A stretch of 10,946 bases of DNA from an uncultured Deinococcales bacterium (GTDB lineage Bacteria; Deinococcota; Deinococci; Deinococcales; JAAFIG01): NCBI GenBank assembly GCA_964247135.1, contig CAXTTL010000109.1:4749-15694 (forward strand), written 5' to 3'. Position numbers and translations under genes: made by a program. The first letter of the stretch is position 1. Each line of letters starts with the position of its first letter. The notes below the pieces were generated by a model that did no database searches, was not told the DNA's origin, and saw only the letters and a list, made by a program, of their open reading frames with translations. Below are positions 1,564 through 10,946 of the stretch, piece by piece.

Positions 1564-2931
1564 ATGTCCATCCAGCACAGCAAACCGCCCAGCAGCCCTC
1601 GAGCCTGGCCCTGCGCCCACCTCTCCCCTGTCGGCGACTGGTGCCGCCACGCCGCCAACACCAAATGCCCGATCGTCACAGGCAACCCCTGCCTCGAACA
1701 CCTCGAGTTTGAAAACGCTCCACAGTCAAAACTCGAGATCGAACCCAAAGCTGCTGCACAGCCCTTCCCAGAGTCCTTTGAAGCCCTCAAGCGTGCGCGC
1801 ACCCAAGCCTGCAAACCCAGCCGCGCCCAACTCGAGACGAGAACGTTCAACCAACAGTTGCAGGCAAACCTCGAGCACCAACAGTGGCCAGAGCGACTCA
1901 AAGCCTCTCTCGAACCTCACGTCCTTTTCGAGCAGATCACCGAGGAACTCGAGGTCACGACAGAAGCGGCTCGAGCGCTGGCAGAGAAGCATGTTGACGC
2001 ACTGCTTGATACAGGCTGGCAACTCTTGTTGGGCAAGACCACCAAACTGATTCGATTCTTGCTGGTCGAGAACCTGATGGCTCGAGCCATGTTTCACTTC
2101 GAGGCAGAATATGTCTTTGCCACCTATGCGGCATTGGGGAGGCAACTGGGATGCTCGAGCAAAACCATCGAACGACGGCTGTCGCCCAGAGCCAAGAACC
2201 ACGCCTGGGTCAAGTGCTGGATCGGCTGGCATCCGCAGGTCATCACCCGCCCAGACGGGCTGCCGTGTGTCGCCGGAACCATTTTCCGCATTGACTCGAG
2301 CGTCAAGAATTACAACCACGCCATACCAGTGCCCCAGCCATCCAACGCCGCCTTCCAGACCGCGTGGCGTGGGGTAGAAACACTGCCGCAACAGGTGTTG
2401 GCGTTGCAAAAAGACGACCAATTGCCTGTGGTTTCCAATAACCGACAAAAAAACAATGTGATTACAACGTTCCCAAAGAACATGGAATGTTTTGGAATTC
2501 GAGGGACGTTGGTCGTCGAAGGTCGGGACATGCGTCTTTCTACCGCATTGCTTTCTAATAACCGACAAAACGCAATCAACTTTGACTGGAAAGGCAAACT
2601 CTCAAACTCGAGCACGTACCACGCTCGAGCGCTCGAGCAGGCGGAAGCAATAAGCTCGAGACTGGGCGACCAAAAATCAACACCATTCTGGTACACCGTG
2701 TTTCGCAAGGCGTTGATTGATGGCTCGAGCACGGTGCCAGTCTTTGCCGCCGTGTCGCAAGCGCTCGAGGCTCGCAAGGTGGGCATGATCACACGCTCGA
2801 GCGTCGGAGGTTATGCGGTGGGCATCCTGCAACGCAGCGGATATTTGAGTCCTAAAAACCCAGCAACACTAATGCTCGAGCCTCAAAAGGGCGTGCTCGA
2901 GATGACTGATTTGCGGGTTGTCACGGGCTGA
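1564..2931 (+). CDS. Putative plasmid replication initiator (Thermus/Deinococcus RepA-like, HTH), 455 aa
   Basis: SD AGGAG (1554-1558) precedes ATG 1564. HTH-like segment TYAALGRQLGCSSKTIERRL. The C-terminal AEAISSRLGDQKSTPFWYTVFRKA...GGYAVGILQR resembles, from memory, the C-terminal domain of Deinococcus-Thermus plasmid Rep proteins. Confidence 0.65.
   Translation: MSIQHSKPPSSPRAWPCAHLSPVGDWCRHAANTKCPIVTGNPCLEHLEFENAPQSKLEIEPKAAAQPFPESFEALKRARTQACKPSRAQLETRTFNQQLQANLEHQQWPERLKASLEPHVLFEQITEELEVTTEAARALAEKHVDALLDTGWQLLLGKTTKLIRFLLVENLMARAMFHFEAEYVFATYAALGRQLGCSSKTIERRLSPRAKNHAWVKCWIGWHPQVITRPDGLPCVAGTIFRIDSSVKNYNHAIPVPQPSNAAFQTAWRGVETLPQQVLALQKDDQLPVVSNNRQKNNVITTFPKNMECFGIRGTLVVEGRDMRLSTALLSNNRQNAINFDWKGKLSNSSTYHARALEQAEAISSRLGDQKSTPFWYTVFRKALIDGSSTVPVFAAVSQALEARKVGMITRSSVGGYAVGILQRSGYLSPKNPATLMLEPQKGVLEMTDLRVVTG
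2432..2570. repeat. 19 bp direct repeat inside rep (candidate Rep-binding site or origin element)
   Basis: TTTC(C/T)AATAACCGACAAAA at 2432-2450 and 2552-2570, one mismatch, exactly 120 bp apart. Confidence 0.8.
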
Positions 2932-3233: not shown

Positions 3234-3938
3234 ATGCTACCAATTGAATTTGTTCAACAGTACCAACGTAAATATCCAAAAAGCTTCACCGTGTTCGAAC
3301 AAATGAGGCTTCAACGCGACAACATTGGCGGCGTGGCCTTGCCAGCCTGGGACACAAGTTGGTGTTTTTTACCACTGCTGGCAAGTCTAGGACATGTCAA
3401 GCGGCACATGCCACGCTCAGAAAATGCCGCAACACAAGACCAAATAACCCTCGAGACCATCATGGTCCACGCGGCTGTCACCTGGCACATCACCAAAGGC
3501 ATCTATCAGGTTCAATCTCAGATCAACGCCGCGTCCAACGATCCTGGGCGTGAACTCAAAATGGCTCAACACTTACCACAATGGTGTTTATACGTCGAAC
3601 ATCCCATGAGGCTGCAATCAAGTTCGGTCAGCGGATTTTTTATTTTCGCCGATTTCGAGCCTGGTTCCAACATCACCCGCCTGATCTTCATTTTTCTGGC
3701 AGACTCAGAACAAGGGGTAAGGGCGATACCAATCATGATCGATTGCGGCGCCACCGATGCAAAGACACAAGAATTAAGGCAAGAACTGGCGATCCCGCTC
3801 GAGCTGCTCTCAAAAATCACCGCCAACGACGCGATATTTTCAAAAGGGCAGCCGAGAAATCCGCAAGCTTTTTTGGCCACCAAAAAAGAGTTGAAATACC
3901 ACGTCGCCTCGTATCCAACGATTTTTAAAGTTCAATGA
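3234..3938 (+). CDS. AcrVA2/FinQ-family-like protein, lacking the C-terminal region (234 aa)
   Basis: Ordered motifs LPAW..WCFLP, TWHITKGIYQV, HLPQWCLYVE, VSGFFIFAD and LIFIFLAD match my recollection of AcrVA2 (AWRNTLGIYQL, NLPDWCVYVD, IKGFWAIYD, LDFVVDTD). The leaderless promoter supports the start. Confidence 0.62.
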   Translation: MLPIEFVQQYQRKYPKSFTVFEQMRLQRDNIGGVALPAWDTSWCFLPLLASLGHVKRHMPRSENAATQDQITLETIMVHAAVTWHITKGIYQVQSQINAASNDPGRELKMAQHLPQWCLYVEHPMRLQSSSVSGFFIFADFEPGSNITRLIFIFLADSEQGVRAIPIMIDCGATDAKTQELRQELAIPLELLSKITANDAIFSKGQPRNPQAFLATKKELKYHVASYPTIFKVQ

Positions 3939-4273: not shown

Positions 4274-4981
4274 GTGACTGACCAACAAATTTACCCGGCA
4301 ATTGATCGCAGGACGCGCCCAGAGAAACGTATTGCCTGGTCAAAACCAAACACCTGGCAGCTCGAGGTTCAAATGCTGATGGAGGTGCTCAAACGACACG
4401 ACCTCGGCACTTGGAAACACTGCCAACGGGTCGCGCTGCTCGCCAAAGGAGTGTGCCGCGAAATCGAACTGACCCCCCTCATCACCGAACGCATTGAAAC
4501 AGCCGCCAGGCTACACGACATCGGCAAAATCAACATCGACCCGGAACTGATCAATCAAGCCCAAAAACTCAGTCAAAGCCAAATCCAAACCATACGCAGC
4601 CACCCAAACGAGGGGGTCAAATTCATACCCGACACACACGAATGGCAAGACATTAGAATCGGCATTCAGGATCACCACGAACTGTGGAACGGCACAGGCT
4701 ACCCTAACCAACGGCACGGCGAACAAATCAGCCTGACCGGAAGAATCATCACCGTGTGCGACGTGTTTGACACCATCACCTCCGACCGCCCCTACGCCAA
4801 GGCACGCAGCACCGAGGATGCCGTTGCGGAGTTGCAACGCTTCTCGGGGCGACAATTCGACCCGAGACTGGTGGAAAAGTTTGTTCAAAGCCTGAATGCT
4901 TCAAGCAACGCCGCTTATGATTGCAACATTGAAACAGCCTCTTCTACCGAGAGCGCTCGAGGTTCAAATTCAACGCGCTGA
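4274..4981 (+). CDS. Stand-alone HD-GYP domain protein (putative cyclic dinucleotide phosphodiesterase)
   Basis: Complete HD-GYP signature: HCQRVA, LHDIGK, HP..G, HHELWNGTGYP, RIITVCDVFDTITSDRPY, QFDP. GAGGT lies upstream of the GTG start. Confidence 0.93.
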   Translation: MTDQQIYPAIDRRTRPEKRIAWSKPNTWQLEVQMLMEVLKRHDLGTWKHCQRVALLAKGVCREIELTPLITERIETAARLHDIGKINIDPELINQAQKLSQSQIQTIRSHPNEGVKFIPDTHEWQDIRIGIQDHHELWNGTGYPNQRHGEQISLTGRIITVCDVFDTITSDRPYAKARSTEDAVAELQRFSGRQFDPRLVEKFVQSLNASSNAAYDCNIETASSTESARGSNSTR

Positions 4982-5337
4982 CCGGCGAGTCCAGCCAAAT
5001 CCGCAGCCAAAGCCAAACTCGGATGTTTGCGCCAACCGACGCTGCGCTCGAAATCAACATCAAGCATCAACTCGCGGATCAATGACAAAAAAGCTTGGTA
5101 AGGTTCAAACGCACAGGCGGGCACCGCCACCGCCTCAATCAGAAAGTTATACGAGCGCAAATCGTCCAACAAGACCCTCACTCGAGTTTCACGAAATCGA
5201 GGCATCGCCACGGCAAGCGCCTCGAGCAACAACTCGAAACCACTTGATTCAGAATCAGCAAACACGACGGACGCGGGACGATCAAAAACCACGCACCAAC
5301 GATGAAGGTTGGTTGAAATATAAAGCTGTTCAAACAT
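4915..5337 (-). CDS. Hypothetical protein with a degenerate RNase H-like fold (140 aa)
   Basis: TATGAT (5349-5344) lies 6 nt before the ATG (leaderless). The pattern LYIST / WCVVF / ELLLEAL / VRVLLDD / VDFERSVGWRKHPSLALAADLA parallels the RNase HI motif order. Overlaps the HD-GYP 3' end by 67 nt. Confidence 0.6.
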   Translation of the reverse strand: MFEQLYISTNLHRWCVVFDRPASVVFADSESSGFELLLEALAVAMPRFRETRVRVLLDDLRSYNFLIEAVAVPACAFEPYQAFLSLIRELMLDVDFERSVGWRKHPSLALAADLAGLAGQRVEFEPRALSVEEAVSMLQS

Positions 5338-5455
5338 TCAAAGATCATACCGACCCGCACCGAGCCACTGGCAAATTTGACGACATCACAGCCTGAAAAC
5401 GATACTGTAACCACATCAACAAGAGCATCCAAAACGGGTGTTCGGAAAGCGGCAA

Positions 5456-7153
5456 ATGAATAAATACTTCGGATTGACCTTTCTCGCCTGCGCCATCACG
5501 CTCGGCACCGTCTCAGCCACCGTACCCAACGACACCTTGGTGATCCTGGGTAACGCGGAAATCGCCGTCTCGCTCGACCCCGCACTCGCCTACGACGCCG
5601 ACTCGGGCGGATTCCTCGAGAACATCTACGAAAGCCTGGTCGGTTACGACGGCAAGAGCTTAAAAACCCTCAAACCGGTGCTCGCCACCGACTGGAAAAC
5701 CAGCAAGGACAAAAAGTCCATCAGCTTCAACCTGCGCCAGGGCGTCAAATTCCAATCGGGCAACACCATGAACTGCCAGGACGCCGAGTACAGCTTTCGC
5801 CGGGTGCTCGTGACCAACAATGCCGGATCGGCGGCCTGGTTTTTGGCAGAGGCGCTGCTGGGCACATCGAGCAACGCCAACGACGACAAATCCGTCACCT
5901 GGGAGGCGATTTCCAACGCGATCAAATGCAACTCCAAAGGGCAATTGGTCTTCACGCTGACCAAAGTCAACCCCGCCTTCGTCGCCATGACCGCGCACAC
6001 GGTCGGCTCGATTCTCGAGCGCAAGTACGCCGTCGACAACGGTGAGTGGAGCGGCACGGAAAAAGACTGGAAGGGATGGGTCGGCAAAGACCTGTCCCAA
6101 GGATTCCTCAATACCAACACCAACGGCACTGGGGCGTACAAAGTGGTCTCGATCAAGCCAGACGCCGCGCTGTTCACTGCCTTTAAAGACTACTGGGCAG
6201 GTACACCGAAAATCAGCAAGGTCTTGATGCAGAAAGTCGACAGCGAGGACAACAGAATATTGGCCCTCAACAAGGGCGATGCCGACCTGGCGGGCGTGCG
6301 CCGAGTCTTATTGGACCAGCTCAAAGACAACGTCAACGTCGTTGATGACCTCCAAAACCTGGCAACCGATTTTGTGATCATGAACCAAAAAATCGGTGAC
6401 ACAGCAGAATTGGGCAGCGGACAACTCGACGGCAAGGGCATACCAGCCACCTTCTTCAGCGACCTTCACGTCCGCAAATGTTTTGCCGCAACCTACGATG
6501 TGAATTTGATCATCAAAGAAAACCTGCTCGGCAAGGGCAAAGCCCGCACCATGGCGCTGCCAGAGGGGTTCTTGGGTTACGACCCGACCATCAAAACCGT
6601 GCCGTTCAACCTCGAGTTGGCCACCAAGGAATGCAAACTCGCCTGGAAGGGCGCGGTCTGGAAAAACGGTTTCACCCTCAAAGCCGAGTACTTCGGCTCG
6701 AGGGTGCCGACCACCTTCCAAATCATCGCCGCCAACCTGGCAAAAATCAATCCAAAGTTCAGGCTCGAGGTGCAGCGCATCCAGAGCAGCGATTACGAAA
6801 AACTCCAATCCGGCAAGGGGGCAATCTTTTTTGGAGCCTGGTATCCGGACTATTTGGATTCGGACAATTACATCTACGCAAATTACCACTCAAACGGATA
6901 TCAAAGCAGTTTCAGCAATTTCAGTGATAAATCCATCGACACGATGATTGAAAAAGCCCAAAACACCACCAGCACCCAACTGCGCGAAAGCCTCTACAAA
7001 CGCATCGGCAGGCGCGGCGCGGAACTCGTCCCGTACATCCTGCTCGCCGAAGGTGCCAATTACGCACCGGTCTCCAAAGCCTTGAAAGGTTACGAGGAAA
7101 ATTACAACCCCATGCGCAACGGACAAGTGCTCTGGAAATCACTGTCCAAATAA
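5456..7153 (+). CDS. ABC transporter substrate-binding protein, family 5 (DppA/OppA-like)
   Basis: Signal peptide MNKYFGLTFLACAITLGTVSA from ATG 5456. Motifs SLDPALAYD, NIYESLV, PVLATDW, FNLRQGVKF, GTGAYKV, FKDYW, VRKCFA and WYPDYLD. Confidence 0.95.
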   Translation: MNKYFGLTFLACAITLGTVSATVPNDTLVILGNAEIAVSLDPALAYDADSGGFLENIYESLVGYDGKSLKTLKPVLATDWKTSKDKKSISFNLRQGVKFQSGNTMNCQDAEYSFRRVLVTNNAGSAAWFLAEALLGTSSNANDDKSVTWEAISNAIKCNSKGQLVFTLTKVNPAFVAMTAHTVGSILERKYAVDNGEWSGTEKDWKGWVGKDLSQGFLNTNTNGTGAYKVVSIKPDAALFTAFKDYWAGTPKISKVLMQKVDSEDNRILALNKGDADLAGVRRVLLDQLKDNVNVVDDLQNLATDFVIMNQKIGDTAELGSGQLDGKGIPATFFSDLHVRKCFAATYDVNLIIKENLLGKGKARTMALPEGFLGYDPTIKTVPFNLELATKECKLAWKGAVWKNGFTLKAEYFGSRVPTTFQIIAANLAKINPKFRLEVQRIQSSDYEKLQSGKGAIFFGAWYPDYLDSDNYIYANYHSNGYQSSFSNFSDKSIDTMIEKAQNTTSTQLRESLYKRIGRRGAELVPYILLAEGANYAPVSKALKGYEENYNPMRNGQVLWKSLSK

Positions 7154-7164
7154 CTTAACCTGAC

Positions 7165-7202
7165 GCTCGAGCGACCGAACCAAGGGTTGCTCGAGCATTT
7201 TT
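7165..7202 (+). terminator. Intercistronic hairpin (terminator or mRNA stabiliser) after the binding-protein gene
   Basis: GCTCGAGCGACC (7165-7176) pairs with GGTTGCTCGAGC (7185-7196) with one G-U pair, followed by ATTTTT. Confidence 0.7.
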
Positions 7203-7221
7203 ATTGAGACTCGAGGGATGA

Positions 7222-8250
7222 ATGATTCAACTGATAATCCGAAGGTTGTTGGGACTGCCGATTGTTTTGCTGGGAGTGACCCTAATGATCGTTGGACTGA
7301 TGCAACTCTTACCGGCACGACAACGCGCCACCGCCTTCGTTAAAAATGCCGCGCAAATGCGCAACCTCGACGGGATCGTCAAAGAAAAAGGTTTGGACAA
7401 ACCATTCATCAGCCAATACCTGTCGTGGATGGGCAACGTGCTCGGCGGGAATTATGGCTACTCCAAAAGCTCCGAGCAAACCGTGCTCGAAACCATCAAA
7501 CAACGCTTTCCGGCCACGCTCGAGCTGAGCCTCTACGCTGGCGTGCTGACGATCGGGGCGGGGATTTGGCTCGGAACACGTGCCGCGTTGCGCCAGGGCG
7601 AGGCGATTGATCGGCTGATTCGAAGCTTTACCCTGCTGAGTTGGAACACGCCGAGCTATATCCTCAGCATTTGGTTGTTGCTGCTGTTTTACGGAACGCT
7701 GGGAATCCTACCGGGCTTTGGGCAACTCGGCTCGAGCAACGCGATCAGCATGATCACCAATCCGCCAATGCGCTACACAGGATTGCTGACCATCGACAGC
7801 CTGCTTGGAGGACACTGGACGACCTGGCTTGACGCGGTCACCCATCTGATCCTTCCCGTCTGTGCCCTCACCATCAGCAACGTCGGCAACATCGTTGCCG
7901 TCATGCGAGGCAGCCTGCTCGAGGTGCTGCCGCTCGAGTTCATCACGGCGGCACGAGCCAGAGGACTGAGCCAAAAACAGGTCAACCTCAAACACGCCAG
8001 AACCAATGCCTTGATCCCTGTGTTGACGCTCTCTGGAGGTACAGTGACCGGAATGCTAACGGGCGCGATCTTTATCGAATCCATTTTCGGACTGCCAGGG
8101 ATCGGCTCATGGGGGGCAAACGCCGCCCAAACCCTCGATTACGCGGGCATCCTCGGCTTCACGGCATTCACGGCGCTGATCGTCGTGGTTGGCAACCTGA
8201 TCACCGACCTTAGTTATGCGTTTGTAGACCCTCGAGTGAGGTTTGAATGA
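7222..8250 (+). CDS. Peptide ABC transporter permease (DppB/OppB-like)
   Basis: MIQLIIRRLL start, GLDKPFISQY, RFPATLEL, HLILP, EAA loop FITAARARGLS, IESIFGLPGIG, and C-terminal DLSYAFVDPRVR. Confidence 0.96.
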   Translation: MIQLIIRRLLGLPIVLLGVTLMIVGLMQLLPARQRATAFVKNAAQMRNLDGIVKEKGLDKPFISQYLSWMGNVLGGNYGYSKSSEQTVLETIKQRFPATLELSLYAGVLTIGAGIWLGTRAALRQGEAIDRLIRSFTLLSWNTPSYILSIWLLLLFYGTLGILPGFGQLGSSNAISMITNPPMRYTGLLTIDSLLGGHWTTWLDAVTHLILPVCALTISNVGNIVAVMRGSLLEVLPLEFITAARARGLSQKQVNLKHARTNALIPVLTLSGGTVTGMLTGAIFIESIFGLPGIGSWGANAAQTLDYAGILGFTAFTALIVVVGNLITDLSYAFVDPRVRFE

Positions 8251-9182
8251 CGAGCTGGTGGAACTCGAGAAGGGTTCAAAAGCTTAAGAGGAAGCGCGGG
8301 TTTTTAGTGGGCGTTGGAATCATTGGGTGTTTCGTGTTGATTGGCATTTTCTCAGCACAACTCGCGTCACCGCAAGGGTATTGTTTGCTGGAGCTTGGCG
8401 GGATCAAAGCGGGAAGCGTTTACAACCCAGCCTCGAGCCTCTTCTGGCGGGCGTTCAATGCCCCGGCAAGCTGCTATCAGACGCCAAGACTCAACTTCAG
8501 CCAACTCCCCACACCACCGTCTCGAGAGGCAATATTGGGCACGTCAGGCGGTTATGACGTGTGGTACGGGATGGTCTGGGGGACCCGCACGGCGTTCAAA
8601 ATTGGCTTGCTGGTGATCGTTAGCAGTGGACTGATCGGGGTGTTGCTCGGTGCAATCAGTGGGTATGTTGGCGGCTGGACTGACGAAATCATCATGCGGG
8701 TTACCGATGTCATGATGGCGTTTCCGAGCCTGGTGCTCATCATCGTGATCGTGTCGCTGGTGGGACGAAACTTGATGACCATCGCGCTGGCTTTCGCGCT
8801 AACCAACTGGTCTGGCTATACGCGGTTGGTGCGCAGCGAGGTGTTAAAAACCAAGACGCTTGAGTACGTTGAAAGTGCTCGAGCGTTGGGGGCGGGTTCG
8901 TGGGGGGTTTTGGTCAGGCATGTGCTGCCAAACTCGCTCGAAAACCTGATTCAGGTGACCATGCTGGACATGGGCAACGTGGTCTTGCTGTTGTCGGGAT
9001 TATCCATTTTGGGACTTGGGGCTGAGGTGGGTTACGGAGACTGGGGACAGTTTGTGAACCTGGCAAGGGTCTGGGTTTCAAAGCCAAAATACTGGTATGT
9101 GATGCTAATCCCTGGGGTATTGATAATGTTGTGGGGAGTGGGGTGGAACTTGATGGGGAGCGGGAGCAGCACTAGCAAGTAA
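8247..9182 (+). CDS. Peptide ABC transporter permease (DppC/OppC-like)
   Basis: ATGA overlap with the previous gene. Motifs LGT..GYDVW, GTRTA, DEIIMRVTDVMMAFP, EYVESARALGA, RHVLPN and DWG. Confidence 0.95.
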   Translation: MTSWWNSRRVQKLKRKRGFLVGVGIIGCFVLIGIFSAQLASPQGYCLLELGGIKAGSVYNPASSLFWRAFNAPASCYQTPRLNFSQLPTPPSREAILGTSGGYDVWYGMVWGTRTAFKIGLLVIVSSGLIGVLLGAISGYVGGWTDEIIMRVTDVMMAFPSLVLIIVIVSLVGRNLMTIALAFALTNWSGYTRLVRSEVLKTKTLEYVESARALGAGSWGVLVRHVLPNSLENLIQVTMLDMGNVVLLLSGLSILGLGAEVGYGDWGQFVNLARVWVSKPKYWYVMLIPGVLIMLWGVGWNLMGSGSSTSK

Positions 9183-9188
9183 AGACAC

Positions 9189-9224
9189 AAAAAAGAAGAA
9201 GTGCAAGGCAACTCGCACTTCTTC
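9189..9224 (-). terminator. Intrinsic terminator for the peptide genes (possibly bidirectional)
   Basis: 10 bp stem GAAGAAGTGC (9195-9204) / GCACTTCTTC (9215-9224). A6 at 9189-9194 forms the U-tract on the minus strand. Confidence 0.8.
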
Positions 9225-9264
9225 ATCTACCGATCAAATTCACTTCAAACCCTTCGAATCAAGG

Positions 9265-9450
9265 TTAAAACAGATCAAACCGAAAGATATTTGGAATAAC
9301 ACCTTGGTTACACGACAAGCAATTCTTTCCACCGCCACCACCACATTCTCCATCAAAGCAAGCGCCTCCACTGCCTCGAGAGGCAGCCATCGCGCCGGTC
9401 AGAAGTCCCAGGACAGAAACCGCAAGCAACACACGCAAAACTTTTTTCAT
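9265..9450 (-). CDS. Small secreted Cys/Gly-rich peptide 2 (61 aa)
   Basis: SD GAGGTGA precedes ATG 9450. Sequence MKKVLRVLLAVSVLGLLTGAMA|ASRGSGGACFDGECGGGGGKNCLSCNQGVIPNIFRFDLF. Paralogous to peptide 1. Confidence 0.88.
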   Translation of the reverse strand: MKKVLRVLLAVSVLGLLTGAMAASRGSGGACFDGECGGGGGKNCLSCNQGVIPNIFRFDLF

Positions 9451-9507
9451 AATCACCTCTTTCTGTACCACTTTTTTAAAACCAATTTTGTAACTGCAAA
9501 ACTAAAA

Positions 9508-9633
9508 TTACGGGTTGCAAGAGAAGCACGACTTGCCACCGCCAGAAATGGGTGGATCGCTTCGCATCGCCATTGCGCCGGTAAGGAATCCCAAAACGGC
9601 AAAAGCCATCAACACACGCAAAACTTTTTTCAT
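9508..9633 (-). CDS. Small secreted peptide 1 (41 aa), not in the ORF track
   Basis: Strong SD GGAGGTGA precedes ATG 9633. Hand translation: MKKVLRVLMAFAVLGFLTGAMA|MRSDPPISGGGKSCFSCNP*, with stop at 9510-9508. Confidence 0.88.
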   Translation of the reverse strand: MKKVLRVLMAFAVLGFLTGAMAMRSDPPISGGGKSCFSCNP

Positions 9634-9816
9634 AAATTCACCTCCCAAATTCCGAGCGTCGCCAATTCAACCACATCAGGTTTTCATGGTGCGTCAATCA
9701 AAGCACAGCACACTGAACAGTTGTCAAATTTAAAAATATGTAACTCTAGTCTTGCAATCAATCTAACATTTGAAAACTCACAAATTACTTACAGAAACTA
9801 CTGCGTTTACAGTGGG

Positions 9817-10946
9817 TTAGGCGCTGAGTCCAAAACGATCCAAAAAGTCAAAATCGAGTTCAGGTAAACCAAATTCTTCGACGGCATCAGTCCAAATCAC
9901 AACACGTTTTTGAGCCTCAGCCACGCGACCTGCTCGGCACAGCACACCGATGACCTTCTTGATCAGCTCGGTGTGGTCGTCCTCGAGATCAATGCCGTAA
10001 CTGGTTTGCAATTGAATCAAACGGTCATAGGCGGCGGTTAAGACTTGTATGTCATCAATGCCGGCGTGGACTCGAGATTGAATTGCGGTGAACAACATTC
10101 GATTAAATTTCACAGACAACGCTCGCTTGCCATCAGTATCCAACGGTGTACCGCCAAACGCTGGCTCAATTTTGACCAATTCTTGAATGGTCATATCGTC
10201 CAAATTGTTATAAACAGAGTCGATCGCGTATCTCGAGTGGTAATAGTCTCCGTCTCGAAAAATACAGAGTTTCTTGGAAATGAGTTTGTCAATGGTTTTA
10301 CAAATCTGCGAAATTGTAACATCAAATTTTCTCGAAATAGTCTTTGGGTCTTCAATTTCCCCAAAAATCAATGACCACAAATCCATTGCACTCGCTTGCG
10401 GGTACAGGCTTAGATAGGACAAAACCCAAAATGGAATACCAAGATGGAGGTCAAGGTTCAACCCATCAACTTTCGCAAACCATTCCTTTTTACCGCCAGC
10501 AATCGAAACAAAAATTTCGTGAGAAAGCGGTTCAGGCACAGTTAAAGGATTGTTTGAATAAAAAGCAATATTTTGAAGCGTCTGAGGGAATAAAGCCACA
10601 ATAGGGTTTAGGGCGGTTGAATTGTGGCAAACGTCCAAGATTAACAACGCTGGTATCCGGTACATTGGAGCGTAAAATTCACTTGGGTAAATAAGCCATT
10701 CCGAAGCTGCATCTAAGTTACCAATATCAAAATAAATGACACCCATAAAATAATGGGTCAGTAGTTTATCCCAGGGTGTATTCGTTGAAATTGCTCGCAG
10801 TTCAAAAAGCGCCTGATCGGCATTGATTTTATTCAAACGATATTGAACAAAGGCTTTTAAGGCAAAAATGCGTCCCACATCTGCCAAAATCCCCATCGAA
10901 GAAGCATAGGATTCAAGCACATCAAAGGCTTCCCACGCCTCCTCGA
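9817..10946 (-). CDS. TPR-like / winged-HTH / BTAD-like transcriptional regulator (5' truncated by the window)
   Basis: The frame is open to the window edge (..EEAWEAFDVLESY..). TPR-like helices (HYFMGVIYFDIGNLDAASEWL), an OmpR/SARP-type wHTH-like segment (WVLSYLSLYPQASAMDLWSLIFG...KFDVTISQICKTI), and a BTAD-like end (AAYDRLIQL...VLCRAGRVAEAQKRV...EEFGL). Confidence 0.65.
   Translation of the reverse strand, partial: EEAWEAFDVLESYASSMGILADVGRIFALKAFVQYRLNKINADQALFELRAISTNTPWDKLLTHYFMGVIYFDIGNLDAASEWLIYPSEFYAPMYRIPALLILDVCHNSTALNPIVALFPQTLQNIAFYSNNPLTVPEPLSHEIFVSIAGGKKEWFAKVDGLNLDLHLGIPFWVLSYLSLYPQASAMDLWSLIFGEIEDPKTISRKFDVTISQICKTIDKLISKKLCIFRDGDYYHSRYAIDSVYNNLDDMTIQELVKIEPAFGGTPLDTDGKRALSVKFNRMLFTAIQSRVHAGIDDIQVLTAAYDRLIQLQTSYGIDLEDDHTELIKKVIGVLCRAGRVAEAQKRVVIWTDAVEEFGLPELDFDFLDRFGLSA

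Follow-up and report, generated by a model that had tools for sequence, protein, structure and literature searches.

The 10,946-nucleotide (nt) window analyzed here (G000:C109:4749-15694, the whole stretch of DNA under study) comes from the genome of an uncultured Deinococcales bacterium, G000 (386 contigs, 5.09 Mb, 52.7% GC, 84% complete), and its right end is the end of the 15.7-kb contig C109. At that end lies a two-part cassette, a large regulator gene together with genes for two Sec-exported pre-peptides, pep1 and pep2; it is evident in the anatomy of the genes, the architecture of the regulator, the recurrence of the pairing in related bacteria, and a promoter box between the two parts. 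All of the elements that an initial annotation of this DNA had described (the regulator, two small genes, a terminator, a binding protein, permeases, and an HD-GYP gene) were located:

4274..4981, plus strand: HD-GYP gene (Pfam HD_5, E 5.4e-31)
5456..7153, plus strand: family-5 (Opp/Dpp/Nik-type) solute-binding protein (SBP_bac_5, E 6.1e-59)
7222..8250, plus strand: ABC importer permease 1 (BPD_transp_1, E 1.1e-33, plus BPD_transp_1_N)
8247..9182, plus strand: ABC importer permease 2 (BPD_transp_1, E 7.2e-30)
9195..9224, minus strand: intrinsic-terminator-like hairpin with T-run (13-pair stem, 4-nt loop; also inverted repeat I1)
9265..9450, minus strand: pep2, 61-aa pre-peptide (open reading frame [ORF] with Shine-Dalgarno sequence, paralog of pep1)
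9508..9633, minus strand: pep1, 41-aa pre-peptide (ORF with Shine-Dalgarno sequence, paralog of pep2)
9760..9793, minus strand: predicted SARP-type promoter box (heptamer pair and -10-like hexamer)
9817..10946, minus strand: C-terminal 375 aa of the regulator, its ORF open at the window and contig end, with the rest on contig C358

The plus-strand importer genes converge on the minus-strand regulator-pep1-pep2 group, and permease 2 ends 13 nt from the terminator.

Both peptide genes start with ATG behind a GGAGG-type Shine-Dalgarno sequence, and both translations open with the features of a Sec-type signal: the n-region is basic, some 14 hydrophobic residues come next, and the c-region resembles A-x-A. 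As paralogs, the two share 26 invariant columns. Over 32 aligned codons they differ by nine synonymous and six nonsynonymous changes, and the resulting dN/dS of 0.14 argues that the shared frame is under purifying selection and represents more than chance ORFs. Two secreted propeptide genes had been proposed at this position, and the Shine-Dalgarno sequences, signal-peptide features, paralogy, and dN/dS bear the proposal out. The predicted mature part of pep1 is 19 aa long and ends in a GGGK-C-x-x-C-N core; pep2 continues from its Sec-type signal into a Gly/Cys-rich middle, the same GGGK-C-x-x-C-N core, and a 13-aa hydrophobic tail. The 13-bp stem of the terminator (9224..9195) directly follows pep2; the scan detected this one site and is by itself not significant (shuffled sequences give a mean of 1.4). 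Apart from the pep paralogy and the terminator, a direct-repeat search of 9190-9830 found nothing. The peptides appear to be private to this locus: we found no further copy of either gene in its own genome, no homolog of pep2 but itself among 5.8 billion clustered proteins, and no homolog of the peptides in a metagenome scan, and a comparison with 363 other Deinococcota genomes gave three weak matches at chance level, the best of them antisense to tatA/tatC-like ORFs.

The regulator gene runs off the contig. The end of C109 and the start of C358 share 80 nt, with a single mismatch, and past this overlap the frame continues for 591 residues (L001:1-1851, minus strand), so that the full protein would have about 966 aa, 591 N-terminal residues on C358 (STAND NTPase, arm, and helical repeats) and 375 in the window. 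A search of 1.84 billion representative proteins returned a sole homolog, P0001, of 967 aa, which is 40% identical to the window part and 52% identical to the C358 part; because P0001 spans the junction, it supports both the contig join and the length. The N-terminus matches AAA_22 (E 6.5e-6), AAA_16, and, over residues 3-48, the MalT model, and a Walker A/P-loop is visible in the translation, as befits a NOD/STAND NTPase. Neither P0001 nor either fragment of the regulator has a TPR match in Pfam at E<=0.1; members of the wider class of C-terminal-BTAD regulators do. One full-length member from a same-genus genome, G005, displays the arrangement openly, with AAA_22 at 51-168, TPR at 515-635, and BTAD at 904-1016. 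A profile built from P0001 and both fragments aligns end to end with 12 proteins of this class (hhalign 99.6%, E 4.5e-25, 869 columns, 19% identity), and the alignment takes in the wHTH and BTAD parts, the class members carrying Pfam BTAD. When the C-terminal 250 aa alone were compared with the genome's own wHTH-BTAD regions, hhalign gave E 4.4e-4 (probability 33%) and 6.3e-4. Judged from these profile comparisons, the regulator is a permuted large SARP, a STAND NTPase-TPR-wHTH-BTAD activator whose domains follow the order NOD-TPR-SARP rather than SARP-NOD-TPR. G000 itself holds 31 BTAD matches, a marked expansion of such regulators; in 19 the BTAD precedes a Walker A motif, as in AfsR, and in 10 it sits at the C-terminal end of the frame. 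The C-terminal-BTAD frames include two proteins of some 905-911 aa whose N-terminus is MalT-like.

Structure-based searches of the window fragment were less telling. An AF2 model of the 375-aa fragment, made from a 2-row alignment, gave no Foldseek match in the PDB at E<=0.001, and a wide fold search with this poor model yielded generic TPR and helical matches at Z <=9.1, with TPR proteins at Z 8-9 inside a helical background. A PDB sequence search with the fragment returned nothing at E<=10. In the ESM Atlas the nearest clusters, at scores of <=0.92, consist of TPR, BTAD, or Trans_reg_C proteins, most often from Deinococcota, and serve as leads only. The initial annotation had read the gene as a TPR-wHTH-BTAD regulator, had looked to its full recovery and fold for confirmation, and had placed it by analogy with the RRNPP receptors. 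The domain reading stands at the profile level, with Pfam seeing none of these domains in the window fragment; the full regulator of about 966 aa was recovered through C358, and the fold comparison brought no Foldseek match at the threshold given above. Membership in an RRNPP-like receptor family is not supported, and the protein reads instead as a STAND/AfsR-like NTPase regulator with permuted domain order. Searches of 40 relatives and of 363 other Deinococcota genomes did not recover the regulator, and scans of genome and metagenome contigs for the context of P0001 returned no relative.

The pairing of such a regulator with a small exported product is found well beyond this locus. We searched 40 relatives with one G000 C-terminal-BTAD regulator and read the DNA downstream of each match, scoring as a mini-gene a small same-strand ORF within 450 nt downstream that had a Shine-Dalgarno sequence and signal-peptide features; three loci were excluded in which the stretch lacked the regulator stop codon and enough DNA past it. 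A mini-gene was present downstream of 11 of the 31 evaluable C-terminal-BTAD regulators, drawn from 25 genomes (8/14 plus 3/17); these 31 loci are not independent of one another, and form five groups by peptide similarity. The background in G000 is 25 mini-genes within 450 nt after 1229 ORFs of >=400 aa. Nine of these ORFs have one within 150 nt, and three of the nine are themselves C-terminal-BTAD regulators, one of which (on contig C3) is missed by the Pfam BTAD model. Within G000, 5 of 11 C-terminal-BTAD regulators have a mini-gene within 200 nt, two of the five being near-identical copies. Set against this background, the pairing of regulator and exported propeptide that had been proposed from one locus is a real, recurrent cassette in Deinococcota.

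The best-sampled orthologous group shows how regular the arrangement can be. The mini-gene starts 84-85 nt past the regulator stop codon in 5/5 evaluable same-genus loci, and its product has a conserved signal peptide, a Pro-rich linker with a variation of 22 residues, and a tail that hardly changes, HC[RT][ST]S[AK]PCTQP. A variable linker ahead of a near-invariant tail is the pattern expected of a processed pro-peptide. The cysteine pair recurs in several unrelated tails of the class, as it does in pep1 and pep2. Some cassettes lie isolated in housekeeping surroundings and have neither a transporter nor an immunity gene near, for example that at G003:C465 beside radA, PIN-TRAM, and truA-like genes, and stand-alone cassettes fit a signal better than a toxin. 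Class members are present in genomes of the genus Deinococcus, some of them on plasmids of cultured strains, and a plasmid search with P0001 gave three distant Deinococcus matches.

A few individual class loci deserve mention in their own right. For the regulator of the best-conserved cassette, that of G005, the G000 copy (C45 23124-24581; L044 3125-4555) is open over 476-485 aa, compared with 1026-1052 aa in its five same-genus orthologs; its N-terminal half is interrupted or lost, and the peptide gene and promoter box are intact. At G008:C18 (L056, 2893-3304) the box is followed by two tandem, near-identical 13-codon ORFs, each with its own Shine-Dalgarno sequence and neither with a signal peptide, and this pair precedes a 48-aa signal-peptide ORF. 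In the complete genome G011, two class regulators flank a 600-aa ORF (G011:C1, L096, 3335-5137) whose product has a thiol-activated-cytolysin-like domain (Pfam E 3.8e-10).

The cassettes also share a promoter geometry. According to the consulted passages of a paper on SARP promoters, SARPs recognize direct repeats with a spacing of 11 or 22 bp, of which the 3′ one lies about 8 bp from the -10 element (PMC10936776). A scan for repeats spaced by 11 nt detected the heptamers TGTAAGT and TGTGAGT, whose starts are 11 nt apart, followed 10 nt on by the -10-like hexamer TAGATT; this predicted site (9793-9760), which has the layout given in those passages, lies 24 nt past the regulator stop codon, with 127 nt between it and the pep1 ATG. 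In the 5.09-Mb genome this pattern has a single occurrence, in front of pep1. In the five orthologous intergenic regions, which have a mean identity of 82%, an invariant block contains two TTTCCCA heptamers 11 nt apart and a -10-like hexamer 10 nt later. Counting that group once, the geometry of repeat, 4 nt, repeat, 9-10 nt, and TAnnnT appears in six of nine independent loci (the window, the five-ortholog group, C3, G003, G011, and G008), compared with 0.74% of 5000 random 185-nt windows of G000 that have a heptamer pair and a suitably placed TAnnnT. From this box and its position, we consider it quite probable that the regulator directly activates the pep1-pep2 operon. At <=2 mismatches the window box has no further copy on C109, C358, or C137, and the regions upstream of the binding-protein and HD-GYP genes hold no heptamer pair.

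The other flank of the regulator gene, on C358, has features of its own. A perfect 9-nt direct repeat, ATTTAACAG, with starts 11 nt apart, occupies L001 1937-1956 between the regulator start and a 146-aa ORF without a Pfam family that is divergent from the regulator (2186-2626, plus strand); unlike the pep1 box in sequence, this repeat may be a second activator site. Farther along is a third small gene (2701-2838, plus strand), of 45 aa, with a Shine-Dalgarno sequence, a signal-peptide-like N-terminus, and a terminal C-x3-C.

We suspect that these parts belong to a signaling loop. The regulator would bind as a side-by-side dimer to the two heptamers, one helical turn apart, its presence replacing a -35 element, and would activate the pep1-pep2 promoter much as AfsR activates afsS. 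The pre-peptides would be exported via Sec and their signal peptides cleaved, possibly with further trimming, and the cysteine pair may oxidize into a small loop. Once released, the peptide would act as a diffusible signal, would be taken up by one of the genome's many Opp/Dpp-type importers, and would be sensed by the repeat domain of the regulator, closing a positive feedback loop with RRNPP-like logic. To this feedback-signal model, in which the regulator activates an operon for an exported peptide that is its cognate signal, we assign a rough probability of 40%; that the peptide is the regulator's own ligand is a step that we infer, and one we hold just as tentatively. A still broader proposal seems to us rather unlikely as a whole: that the class constitutes an unrecognized Deinococcota family of peptide quorum-sensing systems, in which NLR-like STAND activators whose SARP module is C-terminal have Sec-exported and often disulfide-looped peptides as their ligands, each pair autoinducing from its own SARP box, and in which the window would represent a divergent, island-borne pherotype with two tandem pro-peptides.

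The points that speak for a signal are the short mature parts, the many distinct pairs per genome, the stand-alone cassettes, and the presence next door of a cytoplasmic repeat-domain protein as candidate receptor. A cofold of the G005 repeat domain (residues 330-800) with its peptide (residues 26-62), at a score of 0.01, speaks neither for nor against binding. A number of observations weigh against the feedback-signal model, at one level or another. AfsR, the closest characterized relative, activates its small neighbor and is not known to sense it. The signal-peptide calls rest on simple rules of hydrophobicity and charge rather than on a trained predictor. The window's 375-aa fragment matches no Pfam family at E<=0.01 and nothing relevant at E<=10, neither TPR nor wHTH nor BTAD, and its AF2 model is poor (mean pLDDT 57.6). 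With one homolog for the window regulator and none for the peptides, comparative support comes from distant class members at 19% identity. By our filter, 20 of the 31 class members lack a mini-gene, and for the plasmid-borne member of Deinococcus sp. AJ005 the next gene encodes a 103-aa protein without a signal peptide. At the promoter, the heptamer pair of the window has one mismatch, and 13.9% of random windows contain such a pair when no -10 element is required; the three loci from the genus Deinococcus do not pass the strict box test, one of them having a heptamer pair.

The alternative that we take most seriously, though we put it short of an even chance, is a one-way cassette like that of AfsR and AfsS, in which the regulator responds to something else, such as nucleotide state, phosphorylation, or a metabolite, and the peptides are outputs without feedback: they might be antimicrobial or of the cannibalism type, might bind metal, or might signal to another receptor. 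The AfsR precedent itself favors it, in that a SARP-box promoter with a small target next door mirrors AfsR-afsS as presented in the consulted part of PMC10936776, and, with no second copy of the box in the genome, the regulator may have the peptide operon as its sole target. The neighborhood of the G005 cassette (L093, G005:C10 10880-15775) points the same way and makes a toxin-type output conceivable: downstream come an astacin-FG-GAP protease of the secreted kind, an uncharacterized ORF of 220 aa, a member of the SdpA family, and a DCC1-like thiol-disulfide oxidoreductase fusion of 439 aa. In Bacillus subtilis, by the available portion of PMC6818787, SdpA and SdpB mature a Sec-exported toxin precursor, and the genes downstream of the G005 cassette may form a regulated Sdp-like toxin module. 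The 220-aa ORF is, from its position and size, a candidate for the Sdp substrate in place of the mini-peptide. No immunity, exporter, or modification genes lie beside the window peptides or several other cassettes, the mature peptides would be short (some 19 aa in the case of pep1), and the many distinct regulator-peptide pairs per genome resemble families of receptor-pheromone pairs; all three weigh against the one-way cassette.

The remaining explanations concern what the neighbors contribute. The initial annotation had drawn a full circuit, with the adjacent importer dedicated to pep1 and pep2, in the manner of PrgZ, and the HD-GYP phosphodiesterase as output. The convergent adjacency of the two gene groups, with 13 nt from the permease stop to the terminator, invites this idea, as does the fact that the regulator, the peptides, and the binding protein are all without orthologs in five same-genus genomes and may have arrived together; the whole window is accessory, however, so their shared absence does not single these genes out. 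Adjacency to an Opp-type importer turned out not to be conserved. Of the 26 SBP_bac_5 matches in G000, only the one in the window adjoins a regulator-peptide locus, and none of five other annotated loci has a peptide importer beside the cassette; given so many binding proteins, we estimate that a single chance adjacency is unremarkable. The importer set, a binding protein and two permeases without the two ATPases, is also incomplete and may borrow its ATPases: the oligo_HPY ATPase domain occurs in nine places in G000, none of them on C109, and no ATPase gene lies in the locus. With 26 binding proteins to 9 ATPases, binding-protein/permease sets without ATPases of their own are usual in this genome. 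Nor does anything link the HD-GYP gene to the cassette: the box is unique to the region upstream of pep1, with no further copy at <=2 mismatches on C109, C358, or C137 and no heptamer pair before the HD-GYP or binding-protein gene. We regard the full circuit as improbable, and the neighboring importer and HD-GYP gene as most likely bystanders in the same accessory island. Metal acquisition, with secreted CxxC or otherwise modified peptides recaptured by a NikA/Opp-like importer and no signaling at all, would account for the CxxC motif in both peptides and for a binding protein whose scores with the Opp4A, NikA, and staphylopine-CntA models are similar and in every case under the cut-off; yet no modifying-enzyme or metal-regulator gene was detected in the window, the Cys pair is missing from the peptides of other class members, and the Opp adjacency is not conserved, so that we find this highly improbable. 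We give equally little credence to the view that there is no functional unit here and that the small ORFs and regulator are mere neighbors in a decaying accessory island. The regulator and peptides are indeed orphans, and the context may be mobile, the possible next contig carrying genes for an IS transposase and a ParB-like protein. A unit is favored by the selection that maintains the peptide frame and by the recurrent pairing with a common promoter geometry across the class.

Comparison with described systems helps to place the cassette. In Streptomyces coelicolor, AfsR, a large SARP with NOD and TPR modules, activates the adjacent afsS from an afs box, and AfsS is a cytoplasmic regulator. 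The Deinococcales locus resembles this pair in its SARP wHTH-BTAD (here at the profile level), STAND/NOD NTPase, and putative TPR modules and in the small target gene immediately beside the regulator. It differs in domain order, which is NTPase-TPR-SARP here and SARP-NTPase-TPR in AfsR; in its small product, here a Sec-exported pre-peptide with a Cys-pair tail; and in phylum, Deinococcota as opposed to Actinomycetota. The promoters are alike as well, with direct repeats one helical turn apart and about 8-10 nt from the -10 element, as far as the consulted passages of PMC10936776 describe them. A 3-kb survey of the 19 canonical AfsR-order frames in G000 found a small signal-peptide ORF within 500 nt at only one, the C10 regulator, which has a 29-aa ORF 361 nt away; to this the scan of ORFs of >=400 aa adds, 301 nt downstream, an ORF of 97 aa whose signal is lipoprotein-like. 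With the STAND activators of the MalT/LAL type, the regulator shares an N-terminal P-loop NTPase (its residues 3-48 match the MalT model) ahead of helical sensor repeats, and a distant relative, P0004, is annotated by JGI as a MalT-like LuxR regulator; in place of the LuxR-type HTH, the DNA-binding end here is a wHTH-BTAD. PrgZ of plasmid pCF10 is a plasmid-encoded, OppA-like pheromone-binding protein, and the window likewise has a family-5 binding protein beside a regulator-peptide pair on accessory DNA. The difference is that this adjacency occurs once among the regulator-peptide loci examined, that two permeases are also present, and that a peptide specificity of the importer is only hypothetical.

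The RRNPP(A) systems of Bacillota (Rap-Phr, PlcR-PapR, NprR-NprX, PrgX, and AimR-AimP) offer a functional parallel, a cytoplasmic repeat regulator encoded next to an exported pro-peptide; the multitude of distinct pairs in one genome is a further likeness, and the class peptides conserve a core after a variable linker, as a pro-pheromone does. The proteins themselves are built differently, with an N-terminal STAND P-loop NTPase and a C-terminal SARP module here and an N-terminal HTH (or phosphatase) in RRNPP(A). Pfam scans of the regulator returned no RRNPP families, and AimR (5zvv) stood at rank 50 (Z 7.3) among generic helical matches to a poor model. Peptide pheromone circuits with cytoplasmic receptors are regarded as a trait of Bacillota in the consulted part of PMC10075063, and Deinococcota go unmentioned in the searched passages of PMC10075063 and PMC9765709. 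Full-text literature searches for a regulator-peptide system in Deinococcota likewise found none, in keeping with the earlier statement that no system of this form has been described, and the pairing may be an undescribed peptide signaling system.

If the broader proposal of a Deinococcota family of such systems is correct, this would be the first receptor-propeptide signaling with RRNPP logic outside Bacillota and the first peptide ligand of a bacterial STAND transcription factor. Large SARP/STAND regulators such as AfsR would receive a cue through their TPR domain, and the class peptide is a concrete candidate for such a ligand. Here, in another phylum, is a conserved pairing of a putative permuted large SARP with an exported, selectively conserved mini-peptide behind a predicted SARP-box promoter. 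Were the peptides outputs only, the cassette would still mark an undescribed set of secreted small peptides in this clade. In either case, the regulator-peptide cassette provides a simple two-gene test system, and its members on plasmids and in cultured Deinococcus make bench work possible.

By its sequence relationships, the window locus is part of an accessory island. The entire 10.9-kb window has no DNA counterpart in five same-genus genomes, the regulator and peptides are orphans, and the binding protein finds no match better than a paralog: no ortholog of it was found in 20 relatives, where the best match was 48% identical, equal to its own-genome paralog. The closest relatives of the binding protein are 60-62% identical, and its named best matches are all from Deinococcus at <=49%; when the genomic context of the relatives at about 60% was sought, a scan of genome contigs gave only Deinococcus loci at <=43%. 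Matches to the NCBIfam models Opp4A, NikA, and DppA are all far under their cut-offs. The longest ORF of this gene starts with GTG at 5438, and the likely start is the ATG at 5456.

The rest of the window and its surroundings can be described briefly. Four plus-strand ORFs (356-1219, 1546-2931, 3234-3938, and 4896-5396) belong to no Pfam or NCBIfam family; the 461-aa product has, by eye, an HTH-like stretch, and the 166-aa ORF, which overlaps the end of the HD-GYP gene and is of low complexity, is probably no gene. The far end of C358 overlaps C137 by 55 nt, and since C137 begins with an insertion sequence (IS) transposase of the DDE type, that link is uncertain; as a possible continuation of C358, C137 (L043 9685-12871) carries this DDE transposase, then the ParB-like gene, two S41 peptidases, and a TPR-GGDEF protein. 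On the other side, a 10-N scaffold gap lies directly before the window (C109 4739-4748), and the upstream part of C109 (L002 471-3267; C109 1-4800) encodes a secreted-type S8 subtilase and a glutaminyl cyclase, both of them peptide-acting enzymes, about 10 kb from pep1 and pep2.

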